A DNA stretch of 64,000 bases from a virus: IMG/VR virus record IMGVR_UViG_3300011189_000006, positions 1 to 64,000 of that record, one strand, 5' to 3'. How positions within the stretch are numbered: the stretch's first letter is position 1; each line of letters starts with the position of its first letter. The notes beneath the pieces were generated by a model. That model was not told the DNA's origin and ran no database searches. It saw only the letters and a list, made by a program, of their open reading frames with translations. Of the stretch, positions 3,094-49,872 are shown piece after piece. Both the position numbers and the translations under genes were made by a program.

Positions 3094-4752
3094 ATGGAAA
3101 AAGAAAGATTATACTTTATAGAGAATGTATTAAAAAATTCACCTAATAGGATTAAAGAATCTTATGTAAGCAAACATTATCCAATAGTATTTGAGCAAAT
3201 AATAGATATAACTAGGGATAAGGATTTCTCATTTAAACAAAGAATTTGGCATTGGGTTTATAATAACACTAATTTCATAAAATGCTACTGTGGTAATAAG
3301 GTATCATTTGGACAATCTTGGAAAGGTGGATATAAAGAATATTGTTCTAACAAATGTTCTTCCAACTCACCAAGTGTTAAAGAAAAGGCAAAAAATACAA
3401 TTGAAGAAAAGTATGGAGTTTCCCACTACTCTAAAACTGATGAGTTTAAAGAAAAATATAAAAAAACTAGTTTGGATAAATATGGTGTTGACAACTATTC
3501 TAAAACCAAAGACTATGTAAATAAGTCTAAAGAAACATATCTTAAAAAGTATGGTGTTGATTCATTTACAAAGACTGAAAAATATAATATAATATCTAGA
3601 AACACATCATTTAAAAAGTATGGAGTTTCCCACTACTCTAAAACGGATGAGTTCAAAGAAAAGTTTTCTAAAACAATGATGGGTAAATACAATTCTGGTT
3701 CTTGCTTTGGTGGAGAGAATTATAGAGGAGAGAACTTTGAAATGTGTAAAAACAATTTATATGTAAAGTATCTAGGTAATGGTATAAGCAAATTTAGGTG
3801 TGATGATGACAAATTGCACACCTTTGATATAAGCACTGATAATTACTTTGGTAGGCTTTATAATTCTAATAAGTTATGCACTGTATGTAGTCCTATTTCT
3901 GACTTAGATTCCATTAAGGAAAAAGAACTATATGAATATGTCAAAAGCATATCATCACATAATGTTGTTAAGAATTATAGGGATAAATACGAAATAGATG
4001 TTTACATACCAGAACTTAGCATAGGCTTTGAATTTAACGGTCTTTATTACCACTCTAACAAGTTTAAAAAGAATAACTATCATATTGTAAAGAAGAACTA
4101 TTTTAAGGACAGAGGGATAAGGATTATACATATATGGGAAGATGATTGGGTAGATAGAAAAGAAATAATAAAATCTCAAATACTATATAATCTTAACAAA
4201 ATAGAAAATAGAGTATATGCTAGAAAATGCATTGTTAAGGAAATATGTACTAAAGCTTCATCTATATTTCTAAACGAAAACCATATACAAGGTACATGTA
4301 ATAGTGTATATAAAATAGGTTTGTTTTATAATGACGAATTGGTTTCTATTATGACGTTCGATAAATTTGAGGGGAGAAAGAAAATGGAAGAAGGTGGTTG
4401 GAATTTAAACAGATACTGTTCTAAAACATACCATAATATAGTTGGTGCACCTTCTAAATTACTAAAACATTTCATAAATGAGAAGAGTCCAATTAGAATT
4501 ATAAGCTATGCAGATTACTATTGGAGTGATGGTAATTTATACGAACAGCTTGGCTTTAAGGAAAAGTATATCACAAAGCCAGATTATAAATATATTGTAA
4601 ATGGTAAGAGGGTTCATAAGTCCAACTATAAGAATAGTAATATTAAAACATCTATGACAGAGAGTGAATACACAAAATCTAATAATATTTACAAAGTTTA
4701 TGATTGTGGTAAAATAAAATATGAATTATTAAAACAAAAAAAAGCCAAATAA
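3094..4752 (+). CDS. Hef-like homing endonuclease (KYGV repeats, Vsr/PD-(D/E)XK-like nuclease)
   Basis: KYGVxxYSKT repeats; EIDVYIPE..IGFEFNGLYYH; HIWEDDW; ARKC...FLNENHIQG. Confidence 0.7.
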   Translation: MEKERLYFIENVLKNSPNRIKESYVSKHYPIVFEQIIDITRDKDFSFKQRIWHWVYNNTNFIKCYCGNKVSFGQSWKGGYKEYCSNKCSSNSPSVKEKAKNTIEEKYGVSHYSKTDEFKEKYKKTSLDKYGVDNYSKTKDYVNKSKETYLKKYGVDSFTKTEKYNIISRNTSFKKYGVSHYSKTDEFKEKFSKTMMGKYNSGSCFGGENYRGENFEMCKNNLYVKYLGNGISKFRCDDDKLHTFDISTDNYFGRLYNSNKLCTVCSPISDLDSIKEKELYEYVKSISSHNVVKNYRDKYEIDVYIPELSIGFEFNGLYYHSNKFKKNNYHIVKKNYFKDRGIRIIHIWEDDWVDRKEIIKSQILYNLNKIENRVYARKCIVKEICTKASSIFLNENHIQGTCNSVYKIGLFYNDELVSIMTFDKFEGRKKMEEGGWNLNRYCSKTYHNIVGAPSKLLKHFINEKSPIRIISYADYYWSDGNLYEQLGFKEKYITKPDYKYIVNGKRVHKSNYKNSNIKTSMTESEYTKSNNIYKVYDCGKIKYELLKQKKAK

Positions 4753-8908: not shown

Positions 8909-8982
8909 AATTCTGTAGCTCAGCTGGTTAGAGCATCTGTCTTTTAAACAGAGGGTCGTGGGTTCGAATCCCACCAGGATTA
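8909..8982 (+). tRNA. tRNA-Lys(TTT)
   Basis: Acceptor AATTCTG/CAGGATT; anticodon arm TCTGT-CTTTTAA-ACAGA; GGTTCGAATCC T-arm; no encoded CCA. Confidence 0.95.
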
Positions 8983-8987
8983 CACAT

Positions 8988-9060
8988 GGAGTAGTAGCTC
9001 AGCTGGTAGAGCACTTGGTTGAAGACCAAGGTGTCGTGGGTTCGAACCCCACCTTCTCCA
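8988..9060 (+). tRNA. tRNA-Phe(GAA)
   Basis: CTTGG-TTGAAGA-CCAAG anticodon arm; GGTTCGAACCC T-arm. Confidence 0.95.
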
Positions 9061-9071
9061 CAAGATTAAAT

Positions 9072-9145
9072 GGTGTGTGTAGCTCAGTAGGTAGAGCGTT
9101 GGCTTGTGGTGCCAAAGGTCGGGGGTTCGAAACCCCTCATACACC
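9072..9145 (+). tRNA. tRNA-His(GTG)
   Basis: G-1:C73 pair; TTGGC-TTGTGGT-GCCAA anticodon arm. Confidence 0.95.
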
Positions 9146-9154
9146 CTAAATAAT

Positions 9155-9226
9155 ACGGACGTAGTTCAAAGGCTAGAATAACGATCTCCAAAATCGTAGA
9201 TGAGATTTCGAAATTCTCCGTCCGTG
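9155..9226 (+). tRNA. tRNA-Trp(CCA)
   Basis: ACGGACG/CGTCCGT acceptor; ACGAT-CTCCAAA-ATCGT anticodon arm. Confidence 0.9.
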
Positions 9227-9257
9227 CTAGAGTTTAATAAAAATAATATATAGTATA

Positions 9258-9329
9258 ATGAAACTTATAAACACATCGAGTAGTTCAAGTCGCTTAATAA
9301 TTTCGAAAGAGATTCGATTGTGTGTGTAA
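9258..9329 (+). CDS. Attenuator leader peptide 2 (MKLINTSSSSSRLIISKEIRLCV)
   Basis: ATG 5 nt after TAATATATA; codons TCG AGT AGT TCA AGT CGC match downstream tRNA-Ser(TGA), Ser(GCT) and Arg(ACG). Confidence 0.8.
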   Translation: MKLINTSSSSSRLIISKEIRLCV

Positions 9330-9381
9330 TTATTTTTTAAAAATATTATTAGCCTTTCGAATTTATTTGAAAGGCTTTTTT
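9302..9381 (+). promoter_or_regulatory. Transcription attenuator 2
   Basis: 11-bp terminator AGCCTTTCGAA/TTTGAAAGGCT plus T6; leader TTCGAAAG (9302-9309) is perfectly complementary to terminator 5' arm CTTTCGAA (9354-9361). Confidence 0.8.
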
Positions 9382-9453
9382 AGTTCTATATTTCAACGGA
9401 TAGAATACTCGGCTACGGACCGAGAGATAGGGGTTCGAATCCTCTTAGAACTA
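9382..9453 (+). tRNA. tRNA-Arg(ACG)
   Basis: AGTTCTA/TAGAACT acceptor; CTCGG-CTACGGA-CCGAG anticodon arm. Confidence 0.9.
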
Positions 9454-9461
9454 CTAATTAT

Positions 9462-9551
9462 GGAAGATTTATCCGAAAGATTCTGGGTAGCGGAGACGGT
9501 CTTGAAAACCGTTTGCTTTAGGGCGTGTGGGTTCGAATCCCACATCTTCCG
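9462..9551 (+). tRNA. tRNA-Ser(TGA)
   Basis: GGAAGAT/ATCTTCC acceptor; ACGGT-CTTGAAA-ACCGT; long variable arm; enlarged D-loop. Confidence 0.9.
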
Positions 9552-9563
9552 CATAATTTTAAT

Positions 9564-9652
9564 GGAAGCGTACTCAATGTTGGCAAAGAGGCTGGTTTGC
9601 TAAACCAGTAGGTCTGTAAAAGGGCGAGTGGGATCGACACCCACCGTTTCCG
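9564..9652 (+). tRNA. tRNA-Ser(GCT)
   Basis: GGAAGCG/CGTTTCC acceptor; CTGGT-TTGCTAA-ACCAG; long variable arm. Confidence 0.9.
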
Positions 9653-11296
9653 CTAGTTTTTTATTAGTTCCTTTAATTCGTCTATTTGCTGTTGTAAGCT
9701 ATCTATCTTATTATTTTGCTCTTTATTCTCATTTTCCTGCTCTGCAAGTTTTAGAGATAAGAAACTATTATAATTAACAGACATCATTCCGTCATCCTCT
9801 GGTTTTTTTACAACTTCTGGATTTATCTTTTCTATTTCTTGGGCTATAGTACCATATACAGTAATCCCTGGTTGGGTTTTTAATTCATAAGAATATACTG
9901 ATTTTGATATCTTTTTAATATTGGTTTTAAGCCTTTTGTCAGAGCCTTCGAAAAAGTTATCTGCTGTAAAATCTCCACTCCAATCTAAATTTTTATCAGA
10001 TGTTAAAGCAAGCCTACCATTATTATCTACTCCAGAGTTTGATGCTAAGTGAAAATCTATATATCTTCCAATCTCCATTAATCCATCGGCACCAACATCA
10101 GGTATAAATGGCCAAGGTATATTTGCATTAGCACCTGCTATACTTAAACCATTTAAAGATGAAGCATCTACATTTGTAATCCGTGATCCATTTCCAATAA
10201 AGTTTTGTGCTGTAACATCGCCGAATGCTCTAAAATTACCCGACCCTCTACTAAATATAAACCTATTTAAAAATGAAGAGCCCGCGTCACGATATATAAT
10301 ATCAGCTCCCATATCAGCTATTAAAGTTGTTCCTGTAGCTTGGTATTTTAAATGACCTACATTACCAAAAGGTGAAGTACCACCTATTTTAAATTGAGAA
10401 TTATCGTTAATAGTTAGTGCACTTCCTGAAAAATTATCACTGGTATTGCTTCTTAAAAAATCATTACTATCTAAACTATCTAAAGTTGCAGCATCTACAT
10501 TTGTAATCTGTGATCCATTTCCAATAAAGTTTTGTGCTGTAACATCGCCATTATAATCCAAATTACCGTTTTCTCTTAAAGTTAGAGATTTGTTAGAAGC
10601 ATCATTTCGTATGCTAAGATCCGAGAACATAGTTATAGGAAATCCAATATAACCTTTGCGTGTTGTTCCGTTAGATTGATAAAATGAATAAAAAGAAGAG
10701 CTATTACTTCCTGGAAGACCTGTTTCAGTAGAACCCTTAATACCAGATCCATTTGGTATTAAAATTTTACTAGAAAAAGTCTTCTCACCATTAATAGTTT
10801 CAACTACACTTCCAGTCGCCCTAACAAAATTCGTACTATCAAAACCATCTAAAGTTTCTGCATCCGTACTTACAGAAATAATACCGTTTGAAATAATAAC
10901 TCCACTACCAATTTTTACACCTCCTAGAACTGCATCCGTTGCTGTTTGTAGGGTATAACCTACACCTGGTATCCTCTCCCAAAAAGTACCATTGTGAATA
11001 ACGTCATCTCCAACATCATATGATATAGACTTATTTCCAGAACTTCCTGAATCGTCTAAATCAGAAGTACCTGCTGTTGTAACTCTATAGTAATGTCCTT
11101 GAACGCCTGTACTATCTGCTAAAGTAGGAGTATTTGTATCTGCGTCCCAAGTGCCTTTATAAACTTGTGATGCAGATATTGGTGTCCATGTTGCGTTTCC
11201 ATCAGAGTCTGTTTTTAAAAAGTAACCATCTACTGCTCCTGATGTTAATTTAATTGTAGGTGCTTCTACGATATCTGCTATTAATTTAGTTGCCAT
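9653..11296 (-). CDS. Tail fibre protein with C-terminal intramolecular chaperone (peptidase S74)
   Basis: SDKRLKTNI...G.IAQEIE...PEVV...VNY followed by a coiled coil; DA.TLDG repeats. Confidence 0.8.
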   Translation of the reverse strand: MATKLIADIVEAPTIKLTSGAVDGYFLKTDSDGNATWTPISASQVYKGTWDADTNTPTLADSTGVQGHYYRVTTAGTSDLDDSGSSGNKSISYDVGDDVIHNGTFWERIPGVGYTLQTATDAVLGGVKIGSGVIISNGIISVSTDAETLDGFDSTNFVRATGSVVETINGEKTFSSKILIPNGSGIKGSTETGLPGSNSSSFYSFYQSNGTTRKGYIGFPITMFSDLSIRNDASNKSLTLRENGNLDYNGDVTAQNFIGNGSQITNVDAATLDSLDSNDFLRSNTSDNFSGSALTINDNSQFKIGGTSPFGNVGHLKYQATGTTLIADMGADIIYRDAGSSFLNRFIFSRGSGNFRAFGDVTAQNFIGNGSRITNVDASSLNGLSIAGANANIPWPFIPDVGADGLMEIGRYIDFHLASNSGVDNNGRLALTSDKNLDWSGDFTADNFFEGSDKRLKTNIKKISKSVYSYELKTQPGITVYGTIAQEIEKINPEVVKKPEDDGMMSVNYNSFLSLKLAEQENENKEQNNKIDSLQQQIDELKELIKN

Positions 11297-28491: not shown

Positions 28492-28839
28492 ATGATTGAT
28501 AGAGATAACGACTTAGACTTAAAAAAACCTATTTTTGTTCTATATGTTAATGGTGAAGGATATTCAAGACATAATACAGAAGAAAAGATAGATCATTACA
28601 AGCATTACTTAGAAAAAGATAATATAACACTTGTTGTTATTGTATCCGATAGGGATTCATTAGAAATAGTGTGGAATGGTAGTGATTACATGAAATCTGA
28701 TCAACTACTACAAACTGATATTGATAAGATAAAGAAAAGTATGTGTAAAATATATGAAGTGGTATCCGAAGATATTACAGATGCTAACATAAAAAGAAAG
28801 TTAAGAAAATATCTAATAGAAGATATACTAGATGAATAA
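28492..28839 (+). CDS. Hypothetical protein
   Basis: 115-aa ORF coupled to the methyltransferase. Confidence 0.6.
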   Translation: MIDRDNDLDLKKPIFVLYVNGEGYSRHNTEEKIDHYKHYLEKDNITLVVIVSDRDSLEIVWNGSDYMKSDQLLQTDIDKIKKSMCKIYEVVSEDITDANIKRKLRKYLIEDILDE

Positions 28840-29584
28840 AAAAGTAATACACGGCGACTGTTTTGACTATATGCCAAATATAGCAAGTAAAAGTATAGAC
28901 TTGATATTTGCAGATTTACCATATGGGACTACTAAGTGTAAGTGGGATTGTATTTTACCACTAGATAAACTATGGTTAGAATATAAGAGAATAATCAAAG
29001 ATGATGGTGCTATATTATTGTTTGCTCAGACACCATTTGATAAAGTTTTGGGAAGCTCTAATTTAGAAATGCTAAGATATGAATGGATATGGGAGAAAAC
29101 ACAATCTACTGGGTTTTTTAATGCAAAGAAAATGCCTATGAAATCGCATGAGAATATTTTGGTATTTTACAAAAAACTACCAACTTACAATCCACAGATG
29201 ACAAATGGGCATAAACCTATGAATTCATATACTAAGAAAGCATCTGTTCAGAATAAGACAAAAATATATGGGAAGGTAGATAAAGATGTAAGTGGGGGTG
29301 GTGAAACAATAAGGTATCCTAGAAGTGTACAGATATTCCCTTCTGATAAGCAAAAAAACAAATTAAATGGAACTATACACCCAACACAAAAGCCGTTAAA
29401 ACTTATAGAGTTTTTCATAAAATCGTATACAAATAAGGATGACTTAGTATTAGATAATGTAGCGGGTAGTGGAACAGTTGCCGTTGCGTGTGAGAACTTA
29501 GAAAGAAATTATATAGTCATTGAAAAGGAAATAGAGTATTATAATATTATATTGAAAAGATTAGAAATTAATAAAAATTTATGA
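28832..29584 (+). CDS. DNA methyltransferase (N6A/N4C, beta class)
   Basis: DLPYG (motif IV), HPTQKP, VLDNVAGSGT (motif I). Confidence 0.9.
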   Translation: MNKKVIHGDCFDYMPNIASKSIDLIFADLPYGTTKCKWDCILPLDKLWLEYKRIIKDDGAILLFAQTPFDKVLGSSNLEMLRYEWIWEKTQSTGFFNAKKMPMKSHENILVFYKKLPTYNPQMTNGHKPMNSYTKKASVQNKTKIYGKVDKDVSGGGETIRYPRSVQIFPSDKQKNKLNGTIHPTQKPLKLIEFFIKSYTNKDDLVLDNVAGSGTVAVACENLERNYIVIEKEIEYYNIILKRLEINKNL

Positions 29585-29648: not shown

Positions 29649-30365
29649 ATGAAGGCTGAAACCAAAAAAGAAATAGAGTCATTGAAAAAACAAGCGAGCA
29701 AGCTAAAAAAGGAAGTTGATTACTACAACGCCTTACAGCTTGCTCTTTGTTAACCCCCGCTAATTTATTTAGGGGGGGGTGGATGACTAAAATTAGTATT
29801 AAACGGAAGCTATGGTGCTTTTGCTGCTCCTTACTTTATCTTATATAATAACCACGTTGCTGGTACTATTACATCAGAAGGTAGGGAACTTACAAAAAAG
29901 ATGGACAAAGATAATGAGGACTATTGGTACAAACAATGGCACTTAGACTTTGAATTGCATAAAAAACTATACATTGATAATGTAACACAAATATCTGAAA
30001 AAGAACCAGTTAGTATATATGGTGATAGTGTAGATGGGAAGTCCATTATAAATACACTAGAGGGTAAATTTACGATAAAAGATCTTTATGATAAACAAAA
30101 TAAATTATCTATCAGAAAAGATAAAGAAGTTATACCTGTTAACTTTAAGTCATTAAATTGGACTGATGATGAAAAAATACATTATTCTAAGGTGAAGAAT
30201 ATAATTAGACACAAAACTTCTAAAAAGAAATGGAAAATAAAGAGTGGTGGTAAGGAAATCATTATAACAGAAGATCATTCCCTAATTGTTTTTAGAAATG
30301 GTGAAAAAATGGAAATAAAACCAAAGGAATTAAAAAGTGGTGATAGAGTTATAATACATAATTAA
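29649..30365 (+). CDS. Family B DNA polymerase fingers/palm fragment (gp43B-like) fused to N-half of a split intein; interrupted by a 42-nt in-frame insert
   Basis: ATG 29649 is in frame with ORF 29901. Reads ...QLAL[C*PPLIYLGGGG*L]KLVLNGSYG...ITSEGR...IYGD|SVDG. Confidence 0.75.
29746..29787 (+). other. 42-nt hairpin insertion with two in-frame stops in PolB motif B
   Basis: TTTGTTAACCCCCGCTAATTTATTTAGGGGGGGGTGGATGAC; removing it restores QLALKLVLNGSYG. Confidence 0.8.
30027..30362 (+). mobile_element. Split intein N-fragment (112 aa) at the PolB YGD/TDS site
   Basis: Starts SVDGKS after YGD; block B ITEDHSL; ends LKSGDRVIIHN*. Confidence 0.85.
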
Positions 30366-30532: not shown

Positions 30533-31711
30533 ACAGATTCAATTTTTGTATCATTCAAACCATGTATGGATCACTGTGATTGGAAAAATAAAGTATTTAA
30601 CAAAGAGTATTTAAACTCTATTGATAAACCATTCATAGTATTATCAAGAACTAAACTAGATATAGACAATCCAAATTTAGTTGGGAAGATTATATCTAAT
30701 AATAACACGGAAGATGATATTGATAAATTTGAAGAACTTTTAAAAAAGCCACATGATTTAATTTTAATGGATGGGTTTTACTCTAATAACAGAGATATAG
30801 TAAAAATTGTTAAAGACATGAACTTTGGTGATAATCTAATCTGGAACTGGTCTAATGAAGTTGACTTTATCAACGGGATTGACCAAATAAGATTTGCTAA
30901 CTTCTTCAAACAAATGCTTGATGAACATGCTGATAGTTATGGTGTTGAGAATAAAGAAGATTTTGAATTAGAAAGAATATCAGAGTCTATTATCAATATA
31001 GCTAAGAAAAAGTATATCCAACACATATTATTCGAAGATGGAATTCCTTATGAAAGAATGGATTATATATTCCCAAAAGGTGTTGAATTAGTTAGATCAT
31101 CAACACCCGCATTTGCTAGAACTAAGATTGTTGATATTGTAAAGTATTTATTTTCTCACCCAGATACATTTAATATAAAGGATTTGTTAAGATTAGTTAA
31201 AGACCTTAGAAATGAGTTTGAATTAGCAGATATTGATGATATATCAATGCAATCTTCCGTTTCTAAATATGATGTTAAGGTTATAAACGATAAGTCGTTA
31301 CCACTTCAATTTGTAAGTGGTGCACATTTTGCAGTCAAGTCGGCAGCACATCACAACTATCTATTAAACGAGAACAAGTCACTACAAAATAAGTACGAGT
31401 TTATAAAATCTGGGACTAAAATAAAGTACTATGTTTGTAAGGATAAAAAGATAACAGGTATGTTTGCTTATATAAGAGGATCTTATCCTATCGAAATGGC
31501 ACCAGAGATTGACTATGATACACAATTTTCTAAGTCTATACTATCACCTATAAATTCTATTATAGAGCCACTAGGGATGCCAGAAATAACCAAAAGGTTA
31601 TCAGTGGTAATGGATATATTCTCTGGGTTTGGTATGTCACCAAATAAAAAGAAAAATGACGATGATGATTTGGGAGATATTCACGATGATGGCGATGATT
31701 TTCCATGGTAA
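30395..31711 (+). CDS. Family B DNA polymerase C-terminal part (palm/thumb) preceded by IntC
   Basis: HN|TDSIFV, FELERI, AKKKY and KGVELVRSSTP motifs. Confidence 0.9.
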   Translation: MKKENYKLLEIESVEEIGSFEDEYVYDLEMEDESHTFIANDILVHNTDSIFVSFKPCMDHCDWKNKVFNKEYLNSIDKPFIVLSRTKLDIDNPNLVGKIISNNNTEDDIDKFEELLKKPHDLILMDGFYSNNRDIVKIVKDMNFGDNLIWNWSNEVDFINGIDQIRFANFFKQMLDEHADSYGVENKEDFELERISESIINIAKKKYIQHILFEDGIPYERMDYIFPKGVELVRSSTPAFARTKIVDIVKYLFSHPDTFNIKDLLRLVKDLRNEFELADIDDISMQSSVSKYDVKVINDKSLPLQFVSGAHFAVKSAAHHNYLLNENKSLQNKYEFIKSGTKIKYYVCKDKKITGMFAYIRGSYPIEMAPEIDYDTQFSKSILSPINSIIEPLGMPEITKRLSVVMDIFSGFGMSPNKKKNDDDDLGDIHDDGDDFPW

Positions 31712-32101: not shown

Positions 32102-33397
32102 GTGAACTACTTAACCGCTAAAGGCGGTTAAGTTTCAAGAGTCAACACTTCCTCTAATGAGGACAGTTCGTCATGATTTTCGGTGGCAGTCCCTGACACC
32201 GTATTATTTTTAATTAAAGCAAAGTTTTTAATGTTTATAGCTGCATTAATATCTCTATCATGTTGTGCGTTACACTCCTTACAAGACCACTCACGGTCTT
32301 TAAGCGTTAATTCGTGGTTTATGTCTCCACAACTAGAACAAGTCTTGCTAGAGGGATCGTATCTACCTATTTTAAGTAGATTAACACCATACCAATCACA
32401 TTTGTATTCTAGCATAGTGGTAAACATACCCCACCCAACATCTGAAATAGCCTTGGCTAGTTTTCTATCTTTCATCATGCCTTTAATATCTAAATCTTCT
32501 ATAGCTATAGATTGGTTCTCTTTAACTAGTCTAGAAGATTCCTTATGTAAAAAGTCTTTCCTTTGAAAAGCCGTTTTTTCATGTATTTTTGATAATTTCC
32601 TTTTAGTACGTACTCCTTTGTTTCTAGAGTATTTCCTTTGTGTATATTTTAACTTTGATTCATTATTTTTTAAATATCTAGGATTATTGACTTTATCTCC
32701 TTTTGAGAATACCATAAAATCTTTAATGCCTAAATCTATACCAATGGTCGTCTCAGCTTTTATGACTGGCTTAGGCTTTCTGCCTACACCAGTATCACAT
32801 GATATGCTTACATAATACTTACCAGTTGGTCTTCTAGATATAGTAGCGAACTTTATCGCTCCCTTTGCCGCTCTATGCAACTCAATTTTTATACCTTCTC
32901 TGAATTTAGGTATGGATAGTTTTCCATCATCAAAATATATATTTTGTGGTATATGGAACGATTGCTTACCACTCCATTTAGACTTAAATTTAGGATAGCC
33001 ACTTGTTTTTCTACGAAATCTTTTAAAAGCATTATCTAGGTTTTTAATTGGTGCTTGTAAGGTTTGGCTATTTATTTCTTTTAACCACTCAACATCTTTT
33101 TTAAGACCAGGTATTTGCTTTATTAGGTAGTAACAATCAAAAGGAGTTGTTTTATTTTCGTTAGAAGAATTGTTTACCTCCAACCCTATATTATATATGA
33201 ATCTAGCAGAACCAATATGTTTATTGATTAGTTCTACTTGTTCCTTATTTGGATATAATCTGTACTCAAATGCTCTTAACATAATGTATATATTAATAAA
33301 TATCCCTTCTCTATTACTATTCTAGATTTTATTTGTATATTTGCCTACGCCTTACATCACATCGGCTGAAGACCAATGTGTTTCACGACATGATTTT
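32102..33397 (-). mobile_element. IS200/IS605-family (tnpB-only, IS1341-like) element
   Basis: Right-end hairpin TTAACCGC-CTTTA-GCGGTTAA followed by GTAGTTCAC (minus strand); left-end hairpin CACATTGG/CCGATGTG at 33358-33380; left boundary approximate. Confidence 0.75.
32128..33282 (-). CDS. tnpB: RNA-guided endonuclease TnpB
   Basis: YRLYP HTH; RuvC GIDLG / IEDL / DRDINAA intact; CxxC...CxxC zinc finger. Confidence 0.92.
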   Translation of the reverse strand: MLRAFEYRLYPNKEQVELINKHIGSARFIYNIGLEVNNSSNENKTTPFDCYYLIKQIPGLKKDVEWLKEINSQTLQAPIKNLDNAFKRFRRKTSGYPKFKSKWSGKQSFHIPQNIYFDDGKLSIPKFREGIKIELHRAAKGAIKFATISRRPTGKYYVSISCDTGVGRKPKPVIKAETTIGIDLGIKDFMVFSKGDKVNNPRYLKNNESKLKYTQRKYSRNKGVRTKRKLSKIHEKTAFQRKDFLHKESSRLVKENQSIAIEDLDIKGMMKDRKLAKAISDVGWGMFTTMLEYKCDWYGVNLLKIGRYDPSSKTCSSCGDINHELTLKDREWSCKECNAQHDRDINAAINIKNFALIKNNTVSGTATENHDELSSLEEVLTLET

Positions 33398-48264: not shown

Positions 48265-49872
48265 ATGATAAAAAGCAAAGAAGTTAGAATAAAAGCAAAT
48301 ACAAGGAATATTAAAAGATTAAGAGAATGTAAGAATAAAGATTTAAAAATAGGGGATTATTTGGATATACCAATATCTTTTCTAACTAGTGGTAGTCATC
48401 AGAAAGTTAGTTGTATATGTGATGTATGTGGTAAAGAGACACAGATAATGTATCAAAAATATATTAAAAATATATCTAATGCTGGTTATTATTCTTGTAG
48501 TTCAAAGTGTTCACAAGATAAGGTTAAGAAAACCTCTAAAGAGAATTGGGGTGTAGAACATTATTCTAAAACAAATGAGTATGAAAGCAGAGTTAAGAAA
48601 ACTAATTTAGATAAATATGATAACGAATATTATTTAAGTTCTAAGAAAGGTAAACAAGTTATAAAACAATCTGTTCTTACTAAATATGGTGTTGATAATG
48701 TTTTCTCAAATAAAAAGATAATTGATAAAATAAAGAAAACTAACATAAAGAAATATGGTGTTGATAATCCATCAAAGTCAAATATTGTTAAGGATAAAAT
48801 AGGTAAAAAAAGTAAAGAAAATTGGATTAAACAGTATAAAAATCATTATAAAGATAAATATGACTTAGATGTTATATCCCTTGATAATAGTATATATGAT
48901 ATTGTTTGTGAATCTTGTAATAAGACATTTAGTATAAATAAATTTTTATTATCAAACAGGCTTCAATTAAACATGGATATATGTACATTATGCAATCCAC
49001 TACTATCTTCTAAATCAAGCTATGAATCAAAAGTTTTAAACTTTTTGGAAAGTATATATGATGGTCAGATATTAACAAATACTAGAGGGATAATAAAGCC
49101 ATTAGAATTAGACTTTTATATCCCAGACCTAAAAATAGCTATTGAGTTTAATGGATTATATTGGCACAATGAGATGCATAAACCAAAAGATTACCATTTT
49201 AATAAACACAAAATGTGTAAAGATTTAGGAATTGAATTATTTCAAATTTGGGAAGATGATTGGTTATACAAAAACGATATAATTAAATCTGTTATAAAGA
49301 ATAAGTTAGGAAAAAATGTAGAGAATAAAATCTTTGGAAGAAAGTGTAAGGTAGAATATGTTCCTAGCAAAATAGCTAACCGCTTTTTAGAGGATAACCA
49401 CCTAAAGGGTAGTTCTAAATCTAAGACAAACATTGGTCTTTATTATAATAATGATTTGGTAAGTCTTATGTCGTTTGGTAGAAATAGAGTATTTATGAAT
49501 AAGAATAGCATGGATGTTTATGAATTACATAGATTTTGCAATAAAATAAACCATTCTGTTATTGGTGGTGCATCAAAATTATTAAAATTTTTTAAAAATA
49601 ATTTTGATTTTAAAGAACTTATCTCATATTATGACAAGTCTTTCGGATTTAAATCTTTCTACGAGAGTATTGGATTTGAATTTATAAAAGAAACTAGCAT
49701 TAACTACCACTATATAAAGAGAGGTATCAGACTACATCGTTATAATTTTAACAAAGCTAAACTAGTAAAATTAGGATATGATCCAAACATGACAGAGAAT
49801 GAAATAACTAAATCTATGGGAATCTACAAAATATATGGTGTTGGTAATTACAAATATTCAATTAGCAAATGA
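48265..49872 (+). CDS. Hef-like homing endonuclease (paralog of 3094..4752)
   Basis: CDVCG zinc ribbon, KYGVDN repeats, ELDFYIP...EFNGLYWH, QIWEDDW. Confidence 0.7.
   Translation: MIKSKEVRIKANTRNIKRLRECKNKDLKIGDYLDIPISFLTSGSHQKVSCICDVCGKETQIMYQKYIKNISNAGYYSCSSKCSQDKVKKTSKENWGVEHYSKTNEYESRVKKTNLDKYDNEYYLSSKKGKQVIKQSVLTKYGVDNVFSNKKIIDKIKKTNIKKYGVDNPSKSNIVKDKIGKKSKENWIKQYKNHYKDKYDLDVISLDNSIYDIVCESCNKTFSINKFLLSNRLQLNMDICTLCNPLLSSKSSYESKVLNFLESIYDGQILTNTRGIIKPLELDFYIPDLKIAIEFNGLYWHNEMHKPKDYHFNKHKMCKDLGIELFQIWEDDWLYKNDIIKSVIKNKLGKNVENKIFGRKCKVEYVPSKIANRFLEDNHLKGSSKSKTNIGLYYNNDLVSLMSFGRNRVFMNKNSMDVYELHRFCNKINHSVIGGASKLLKFFKNNFDFKELISYYDKSFGFKSFYESIGFEFIKETSINYHYIKRGIRLHRYNFNKAKLVKLGYDPNMTENEITKSMGIYKIYGVGNYKYSISK

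Follow-up and report, generated by a model that had tools for sequence, protein, structure and literature searches.

A family-B DNA polymerase (PolB) gene carried by an AT-rich viral record (IMG/VR IMGVR_UViG_3300011189_000006, 91 kb, G+C ~29%) is interrupted inside its catalytic motif B by a short stretch holding a GC-clamped hairpin and two stop codons, and this stretch is likely to be a programmed translational bypass element, across which the ribosome would hop in a manner analogous to the gene 60/MobA system of phage T4, here in a different gene. The analysis covers the first 64 kb of the record (hereafter the window); the nearest named relatives are uncultured huge phages of 634–642 kb (LR745206 and LR756502, at 71.9% and 67.3% protein identity, respectively). 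The interrupted stretch occurs in 23 lake and salt-lake metagenome runs, all of DNA. A mechanism acting at the level of translation is supported by gap lengths that do not respect the reading frame, by a stop codon conserved in function and not in sequence, by matched and directional codon pairs at the junction, by a covarying sense-strand hairpin at a fixed distance from the junction, and by evidence that purifying selection acts on either side of the gap in an essential gene present in one copy.

The interrupted polymerase and its gap

The C-terminal half of the polymerase begins at an ATG (29649) common to all relatives, and its first 33 codons specify a lysine-rich peptide that includes the segment IESLK and ends in ...YYNALQLAL. 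Past the Leu33 codon CTT, the presumed take-off codon, the gap (Table 1) comprises in order a TGT codon, TAA (29751–29753), a hairpin closed by C5 and G8 runs, the letters TGGA, TGA (29784–29786), and finally CTA (29787–29789), the presumed landing codon. The TAA lies in the frame of the take-off codon and the TGA, located within an A/G-rich tail, in that of the landing codon, past which the coding sequence continues with AAA TTA GTA... to give KLVLNGSYG(AF...). In the hairpin the C-run starts exactly 6 nt past the take-off codon and the 3' G-run ends 7 nt before the landing codon, and the predicted folding energy is −17.9 kcal/mol for the sense strand vs −13.1 for the antisense strand. The initial annotation, made from the sequence alone, had recognized a hairpin insert with two stops in motif B whose removal restores the motif, and had noted the lack of an in-frame ATG before 29901. 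These points are borne out: the sequence is as it was described, excision of 29748–29789 yields QLALKLVLNGSYG, and the downstream frame between the gap and 29901 offers not only no ATG but also no GTG or TTG. Its assignment to motif B was confirmed by a search in which a profile of uninterrupted relatives served as the query, aligning this stretch with solved family-B polymerases including Sulfolobus PolB1 (1s5j, E 1.3e-4), Pol alpha and herpesvirus UL30; a single-sequence search of the solved structures returned no match for the PolB stretch.

The gap is real at the level of DNA. Contigs from four runs, belonging to four studies (2018–2020) and assembled at a word depth of 10–68, span the region in one piece, and all four contain the gap. 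A gap-less joint, for which the initial annotation had proposed to look in the form of insert-minus alleles, does not occur in these contigs, a type of evidence that establishes the presence of the gap while rare gap-less variants lie below its reach. An assembly artefact or a minority variant was considered and rejected on the same grounds. The 42-nt length, which had been taken to be exact and in frame, did not hold up, since the gap measures 41 nt in all four contigs, three of which carry the substitution G29773T together with a 1-nt deletion, and the fourth G7 in place of G8; a separate Joint Genome Institute contig (L049) likewise has a gap of 41 nt. In the G29773T form a G:G mismatch in the stem is replaced by a G.U pair, and the folding energy of the 41-nt variant is −21.3 kcal/mol in the sense and −15.3 in the antisense orientation. 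The in-frame length of the window allele is thus accidental and not conserved, and the coexistence of 41- and 42-nt gaps within one phage population, with the flanking frames intact, speaks against in-frame decoding of the gap.

Motif B is not the only point at which this polymerase is broken. Motif C (YGD|TDS) is the site of a second interruption, by a predicted split intein residing on separate open reading frames (ORFs). The first of these continues from ...VSIYGD into an N-terminal intein half starting with Ser, which matches positions 8–93 of the Intein_splicing profile (E 3.6e-11), and the second, opened by a new ATG, encodes a C-terminal half that matches positions 121–155 (E 1.5e-6) and ends in VHN directly before TDS. 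Both the junctions (YGD|S... and ...VHN|TDS) and the splicing blocks expected of a split intein are therefore found on the two ORFs. The C-extein that follows shares 62–81% identity with 41 viral contigs (71.9% with LR745206). The N-terminal half of the polymerase, a 512–515 amino acid (aa) ORF with the exonuclease domain and motif A, is located ~100 kb from the C-terminal half in related huge phages, from which it follows that the replicative polymerase of the whole clade is a split gene. In relatives L043–L045 the N-half is found at G001:172482, G002:204250 and G003:234929. A PF03104 search did not recover it from the 91-kb record, and Pfam identified no polymerase among ten large ORFs of the record. 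No other family-B polymerase domain was found in near-complete relatives (98% and 95% complete).

A family of gaps in related polymerases

To place the window allele among its relatives, the joined peptide was compared with loci that code for this protein, 41 of them viral and 80 from metagenomes, and the survey of gaps took in 118 related huge-phage loci. Among the loci that could be resolved, 64 were uninterrupted and 49 interrupted, and the latter reduce to 31 distinct gap alleles in ~18 hairpin-sequence families. The alignment of relatives that the initial annotation had proposed thus returned a set of homologous gaps, 36–49 nt long, each of which follows one of four nearby motif-B codons: Ala32, Leu33 (the site used in the window), Val36 and Tyr41. 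Their lengths are spread over all three classes modulo 3 (10, 12 and 9 alleles), and a stop in the take-off frame, for which TAA, TAG and TGA are interchangeable, occupies codon +2 in 24/31 alleles (the window, with TGT TAA, among them) and codon +1 in a further four, being absent or late in the remaining three. With 28/31 alleles carrying such a stop and lengths falling into every frame class, an in-frame reading of the gap is excluded. The +1 codons (TTT, GTT, GCT...) are not obviously rare.

The codons bordering the gap are related to each other in a way that the rest of the gap is not. In 24/31 alleles the triplet that closes the gap (the landing codon) and the take-off codon are synonymous, namely 17/17 at the Ala, Leu and Val sites and 7/14 at the Tyr site, vs 0/31 for the triplets at nine preceding offsets that served as a control. 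Furthermore, the pairs are directional, the window pair being CTT/CTA: CTT is followed by CTA in ten alleles, GTT by GTA in three, GCT by GCA in one, TAT by TAC in six, and CTG by CTA in one, so that the landing codons of matched pairs are NNA or TAC. The take-off codon is NNT in 30/31 gapped alleles, vs a usage of CTT in 15/51, GTT in 18/51 and TAT in 34/51 ungapped alleles. Take-off one codon later, immediately before the stop (at TGT in the window), was considered and rejected, because not one allele offers a landing codon to match it and extra residues would be introduced into the motif. Upstream, a segment conforming to E[ST]L[KR] is located ~22 residues before the Leu take-off codon in 23/30 gapped vs 7/45 ungapped alleles (IESLK, 29673–29687, in the window), which could represent a nascent-peptide signal, or equally a trace of co-conversion with a cassette.

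Hairpins throughout the family share a common layout, in which a C-run starting 6 nt (26 alleles) or 7 nt (5 alleles) past the take-off codon pairs with a G-run, and an A-rich tail then leads to the landing codon, with the last G-run ending 5–9 nt before it in 25/31 alleles. In the alignment of the 31 alleles 92% of the cells are paired, compared with 73% in shuffled alignments and 50–58% when the partners are slid. Compensatory double changes occur in 9 of the 11 pairs, and none of 500 shuffles matches the observed covariation score. Folding energies range from −17 to −35 kcal/mol, and the sense strand is the more stable in 27/31 alleles, an advantage that arises from G.U pairs. Scores from a covariance model built on the element are also higher for the sense strand than for its complement. 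The hairpin is therefore conserved as a structure and not as a sequence, and is both selected and strand-specific. No intrinsic terminator was detected at the hairpin, and an Rfam search at E ≤ 1 gave two chance-level matches below gathering scores, and hence no known RNA family or self-splicing intron. Each genome harbours a single copy, including the 91-kb record and a 98%-complete relative of 483 kb. Strict and loose sequence patterns and the covariance model locate the element only at PolB motif B (five records, 100 loci/673 kb of related DNA); additional matches in G001 and G003, at corresponding positions in the two (E 2e-4 to 4e-4), fall inside an uninterrupted 88-aa ORF in the copy examined and are attributed to chance.

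Both flanks of the gap are under purifying selection. Among gapped pairs the ratio of nonsynonymous to synonymous substitution rates (dN/dS) is ~0.07–0.15 upstream of the gap, between the gap and motif C, and over the C-terminal 360 codons, as exemplified by the pair L127/L128 with dN/dS values of 0.018/0.258 from the gap to motif C and 0.027/0.328 in the C-terminal region. In addition, the Gly-Ser-Tyr codons preceding the Tyr-site gaps vary synonymously (TCT, TCC, AGC), from which it follows that these codons are translated. Low dN/dS and synonymous variation before the gaps together rule out a decaying pseudogene, and the conclusion that the gene must work is reinforced by the presence of only a split PolB in near-complete relatives and by the absence of a start codon up to 29901. 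An intact polymerase copy elsewhere, with the interrupted one in decay, had been named as an outcome that would overturn the first interpretation; neither a second PolB in the 98%- and 95%-complete relatives nor elevated dN/dS was encountered.

In many relatives the gap is linked to a neighbouring gene. Among the 25 distinct gapped loci with enough upstream sequence, 16 have a nuclease-like ORF upstream of the polymerase, vs 0/47 ungapped loci (Fisher p = 5e-10). This ORF, of up to ~390 aa and on the opposite strand (for example L017:4444–5544, minus strand), starts 67–85 nt upstream of the ATG of the PolB C-half. It has DUF7487 repeats, and the PHROG families that it matches bear the annotation homing endonuclease (PHROG 3339/12131). 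In its C-terminal 120 aa Pfam found nothing credible as a nuclease domain, and an HNH-like motif is discernible by eye only. Gapped alleles do not group apart from ungapped ones in the PolB tree but are interleaved with them, the window being sister to the ungapped L002, and L024 to the ungapped L026, while L007 and L008 have an identical downstream protein with gaps at different sites. The gap is thus mobile on short time scales, and travels with, and sometimes without, the nuclease-like gene.

Proposed ribosome hopping and its alternatives

The bypass mechanism we favour for the window would proceed as follows. A ribosome translating the PolB C-half would reach Leu33 (CUU) in the P site, where the GC-clamped hairpin 6 nt downstream would block further decoding, and the UAA one codon further on would terminate those ribosomes that read through. 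Peptidyl-tRNA-Leu would then release CUU, the ribosome would slide across the 41–42 nt, and the same tRNA would re-pair with CUA, decoding being resumed at AAA. The predicted product is a single polypeptide with an intact motif B (QLAL-KLVLNGSYG) and the junction peptide EVDYYNALQLALK (Leu33–Lys34), as opposed to a termination product that would end in ...ALQLALC. By the standard rules of wobble, whether applied to U34 tRNAs (those for Leu, Val and Ala) or to the G34 tRNA-Tyr, the same tRNA would leave a wobble pairing and land on a Watson–Crick pairing. Frameshift-stimulating stem-loops are reported to hinder A-site decoding (bioRxiv 10.1101/2020.02.05.936120), and it is plausible that a stem-loop this near to the P site could itself have such an effect. 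As to its origin, the gap may be the leftover of a mobile cassette, consisting of a homing-endonuclease-like gene and the gap, that invades motif B among related huge phages; by analogy with gene 60, the target site of the nuclease is probably disrupted by the insert, which would be kept as immunity, and the window would have retained the gap after losing the nuclease gene, or without ever receiving it.

Several observations detract from this interpretation. In most alleles the A site at take-off would be occupied by a sense codon (TGT in the window) and not by a stop, the latter usually being found at codon +2, unlike most gene 60 cassettes in which it is at +1. Seven Tyr-site alleles land on AAC, AAT, AGC or TAA and not on a Tyr codon. 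Assistance of landing by a G-run through Shine-Dalgarno (SD) pairing, as in gene 60, is doubtful in a phage that does not use such signals: an SD-like leader precedes 5/80 ORFs (record ORFs of at least 120 aa), which is below the 10% background. The window holds a gap-only allele, with a methylase gene where others have the nuclease-like gene, so that the expected cassette is found in the family and not in the window itself. The gap alleles also share descent, falling into ~18 hairpin-sequence families, and their counts overstate their independence. Finally, the sequences show the anatomy of the gap, the rules of the family, selection on the flanks, the reality of the gap in DNA and the link to the nuclease-like gene, whereas hopping by the ribosome, the contribution of the individual signals, and nuclease cleavage of motif-B DNA are matters that we infer. 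The initial annotation had considered bypassing as one of three explanations, calling it an imperfect fit on account of the sense codon ahead of the stop. Bypassing has emerged as the best-supported reading, and the feature that had seemed not to fit it is the norm of the family (24/31).

Removal at the RNA level, in which a hairpin mini-intron of ~40 nt would be cut out and the ends religated by an unknown phage or host activity to leave a continuous mRNA for translation, would accommodate the covarying and sense-stable hairpin, as would any RNA-level signal. We nevertheless consider it unlikely, since the 3' boundary of the gap falls 8–19 nt past the stem within the non-conserved A-rich tail, where an enzyme could not locate it by its distance from the hairpin, and since splicing of this kind would leave unexplained why a take-off-frame stop of any of the three kinds is kept, why the last gap triplet is synonymous with the take-off codon, and why the exchange proceeds asymmetrically from T to A or C. 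The element has no Rfam match, and introns this small are not known to be removed by any mechanism of bacteria or phages. The low dN/dS downstream of the gap in several gapped lineages speaks against the notion that the gap simply inactivates the PolB C-half, so that replication would depend on a host polymerase or an unsampled gene, or that the gapped genomes are defective riders. The record covers only 91 kb of a much larger genome, in which the N-half was not found and a second polymerase might be encoded, and this gives the idea what plausibility it has; translation of the codons preceding the Tyr-site gaps, the sole presence of a split PolB in the 98%- and 95%-complete relatives, and a gapped allele that is the assembled form in four runs over three years all render a broken gene decidedly improbable. 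The inactivating or minority variant put forward at the outset fares no better, given four gapped assemblies, selection on the flanks, and the lack of a second PolB in the near-complete relatives.

Another alternative is a remnant of DNA mobility that is related to tnpB and precisely excised from the DNA before expression, either an IS200/IS605-type end standing alone, as suggested at the outset, or a hairpin of the REP kind. It draws on a tnpB gene whose 3' hairpin, 2.3 kb away, resembles the gap in being a hairpin followed by a short tail. IS200/IS605 ends, PATE and REP elements are characterized by repeated hairpin ends with conserved flanking cleavage motifs and by an association with TnpA, TnpB or RAYT. 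A single copy in each genome (the 483-kb relative included) and a covariance model that matches PolB motif B only are contrary to this notion, and the tail GTGGATGAC is not conserved in relatives. The tnpB hairpin bears no significant similarity to the gap hairpin, and the gene upstream of the gap in relatives, with its DUF7487 repeats, is unlike the TnpB of the window (blastp of all upstream ORFs, no match). With no gap-less contig in the four runs, and G.U pairs making the structure strand-specific, an excised DNA element has very little to commend it. Equally slim are the chances that the polymerase is made as two peptides split in motif B, with re-initiation just past the gap. The A-rich tail before the landing codon does resemble the A-rich, SD-less leaders of this phage's genes, and the polymerase is in any case built from separate pieces. 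Against this, the window has no in-frame ATG, GTG or TTG past the gap (to 29901), neither the landing codons (CTA, GTA, GCA, TAC, AAC) nor the codons next to them (AAA, CTA, TTA, GGA) are start codons, the split would fall at four different residues of one helix, and the matching of codons would be left unexplained.

Starting from the bypass reading, a broader proposal in four parts, which we regard as possible and advance only tentatively as a whole, is that the gaps constitute a second, independently evolved family of natural ribosome-hopping cassettes whose mechanism is in part unlike that of gene 60. Under this proposal the GC-clamped hairpin 6 nt downstream would trigger take-off with a sense codon in the A site; the tRNA would re-pair directionally, from wobble to Watson–Crick (NNU to NNA, or UAU to UAC); landing would take place with no SD help, in a host that does not use SD sequences and is possibly a member of the Bacteroidota; and the gap would be maintained as immunity against a DUF7487-type homing endonuclease targeting PolB motif B.

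Known bypass systems, split inteins and the genomic neighbourhood

To our knowledge, efficient long-range bypass has been proven at the bench for essentially one phage gene, gene 60 of T4, and by proteomics for the byps of yeast mitochondria. The 50-nt bypass of gene 60 belongs to a MobA homing-endonuclease cassette, homologues of which interrupt myovirus topoisomerase genes (Manning and Atkins, bioRxiv 10.1101/2022.08.31.505936). The PolB gaps resemble these cassettes in many respects: a short non-coding gap, within the same size range, lies a few dozen codons into the second part of an essential replication gene that is split; the take-off codon matches the landing codon except at the wobble position; a stop stands where the gap begins, a covarying stem-loop at take-off, and an A/U-rich 3' part before the landing codon; a free-standing homing-endonuclease gene (homing-endonuclease-like in the present case) is linked to the gap; and the distribution is patchy, with some alleles retaining the gap after loss of the nuclease. 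They differ in the host gene, which is topoisomerase II for gene 60 and the motif B region of PolB here, and in the nuclease-like gene, which contains DUF7487 repeats (PHROG 3339/12131) and is divergently oriented. Four take-off codons (Ala, Leu, Val, Tyr) are represented where gene 60 uses Gly or Asp, the stem usually starts 6 nt past the take-off codon whereas the gene 60 stem includes it, the phage does not use SD sequences, and the bypass is predicted from sequence.

A second point of comparison is provided by mitochondria. Lang et al. (2014) reportedly described byps, translational bypass elements of 27–55 nt, in Magnusiomyces mitochondria. Like byps, the PolB gaps are GC-rich hairpin inserts of similar length within conserved coding sequence of an AT-rich genome; in both, the codons of take-off and landing match, and a codon that is not decodable follows take-off. 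Byps are multicopy and mobile, with dozens per genome in many genes, unlike the present element, which is confined to a single copy in one motif of one gene and is linked to a homing-endonuclease-like gene. A full-text search of the literature found no description of bypass in PolB, the described cases being the gene 60 family, mitochondrial byps, and candidates in Streptomyces phages.

The interruption of motif C has its own precedent in fractured genes, in which split inteins flank a free-standing ORF (Dassa et al. 2009, PMC2677866). As in these genes, PolB motif C is divided between N- and C-intein halves on separate ORFs, and in relative L012 a 366-aa ORF of no known family is located between the halves (L012:4773–5873), the 'fractured gene' layout. 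In the window, unlike in fractured genes, just 29 nt separate the two halves and no gene lies between them, and the trans-splicing that would join them is predicted from the sequences of the two halves.

If the bypass reading is correct, the gaps represent a second phage bypass family, set in the catalytic motif of an essential polymerase, and imply that hopping works in SD-less translation systems; they would also support the view that such gaps evolve to make target sites immune in arms races with homing endonucleases. The natural variants, at least 31 in number and spread over four take-off codons, amount to a ready mutational series, bearing on the position of the hairpin and of the stop, the codon pair, the length of the tail, and the nascent peptide. 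The window itself contributes the 41/42-nt population variation, a nuclease-free gap-only allele, the directional codon rule, and a polymerase that would need a split intein as well. On the practical side, gene callers split or truncate these polymerases, which affects PolB phylogenies as well as completeness estimates for huge phages.

Table 1. Position of the polymerase segments, the gap and neighbouring features in the window
Feature	Position	Strand	Remarks
N6/N4 DNA methylase gene	28832..29584	+	PF01555, E 2.4e-32
PolB C-half, first 33 codons	29649..29747	+	ATG to putative take-off codon CTT (Leu33, 29745–29747)
Putatively untranslated coding gap, 42 nt	29748..29789	+	TGT, hairpin, two stops, landing codon
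GC-clamped stem-loop	29754..29779	+	C5-G-CTAA, loop, TTAG-G8; unique in the window
Resumed PolB frame	29790..30026	+	KLVLNGSYG (motif B) through ...VSIYGD (first half of motif C); PF00136 partial match
Predicted N-terminal split-intein half, 112 aa	30027..30365	+	Ser after YGD, stop 30363–30365; Pfam Intein_splicing
Predicted C-terminal split-intein half, 46 aa	30395..30532	+	New ATG, ...VHN directly before TDS; Pfam Intein_splicing
PolB C-extein	30533..31711	+	TDS of motif C, then thumb region
tnpB hairpin, perfect 10 bp	32109–32133		Just past the 3' end of tnpB
tnpB (TnpB/Cas12f-like)	32128–33282	minus	OrfB_IS605, TNB and HTH domains

Further features of the record concern its translation. 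The start codons of its ORFs are preceded by A/T-rich leaders, many with a TATATAA-like box ~20 nt upstream, a pattern that suggests a host with SD-independent initiation, possibly one of the Bacteroidota. The window also contains a cluster of seven tRNA genes (8909–9653) for Lys-TTT, Phe-GAA, His-GTG, Trp-CCA, Arg-ACG, Ser-TGA and Ser-GCT, with none for the amino acids at the take-off sites (Leu, Val, Ala and Tyr). A homologue of translation initiation factor IF3 (IF3_N and IF3_C; L010:5087–5626, cluster c3) is situated directly upstream of the PolB C-half in ~13 related loci, in gapped and ungapped relatives alike, and is missing from that position in the window.

Concerning mobile elements, no tnpA was seen with the tnpB gene, which is unrelated to the polymerase gap. 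Two paralogous ORFs of ~550 aa (3094–4752 and 48265–49872) combine DUF7487 repeats with a REase_MTES_1575 nuclease domain and match the PHROG 3339 family 'homing endonuclease' (E 1e-116); they share this family of DNA-binding repeats with the nuclease-like gene linked to the gap in relatives. Immediately upstream of the polymerase, the methylase gene lies between a conserved 115-aa ORF and the PolB C-half in this phage only, and in the ungapped sister L002 the homologue of the 115-aa ORF stands directly upstream of the polymerase gene.

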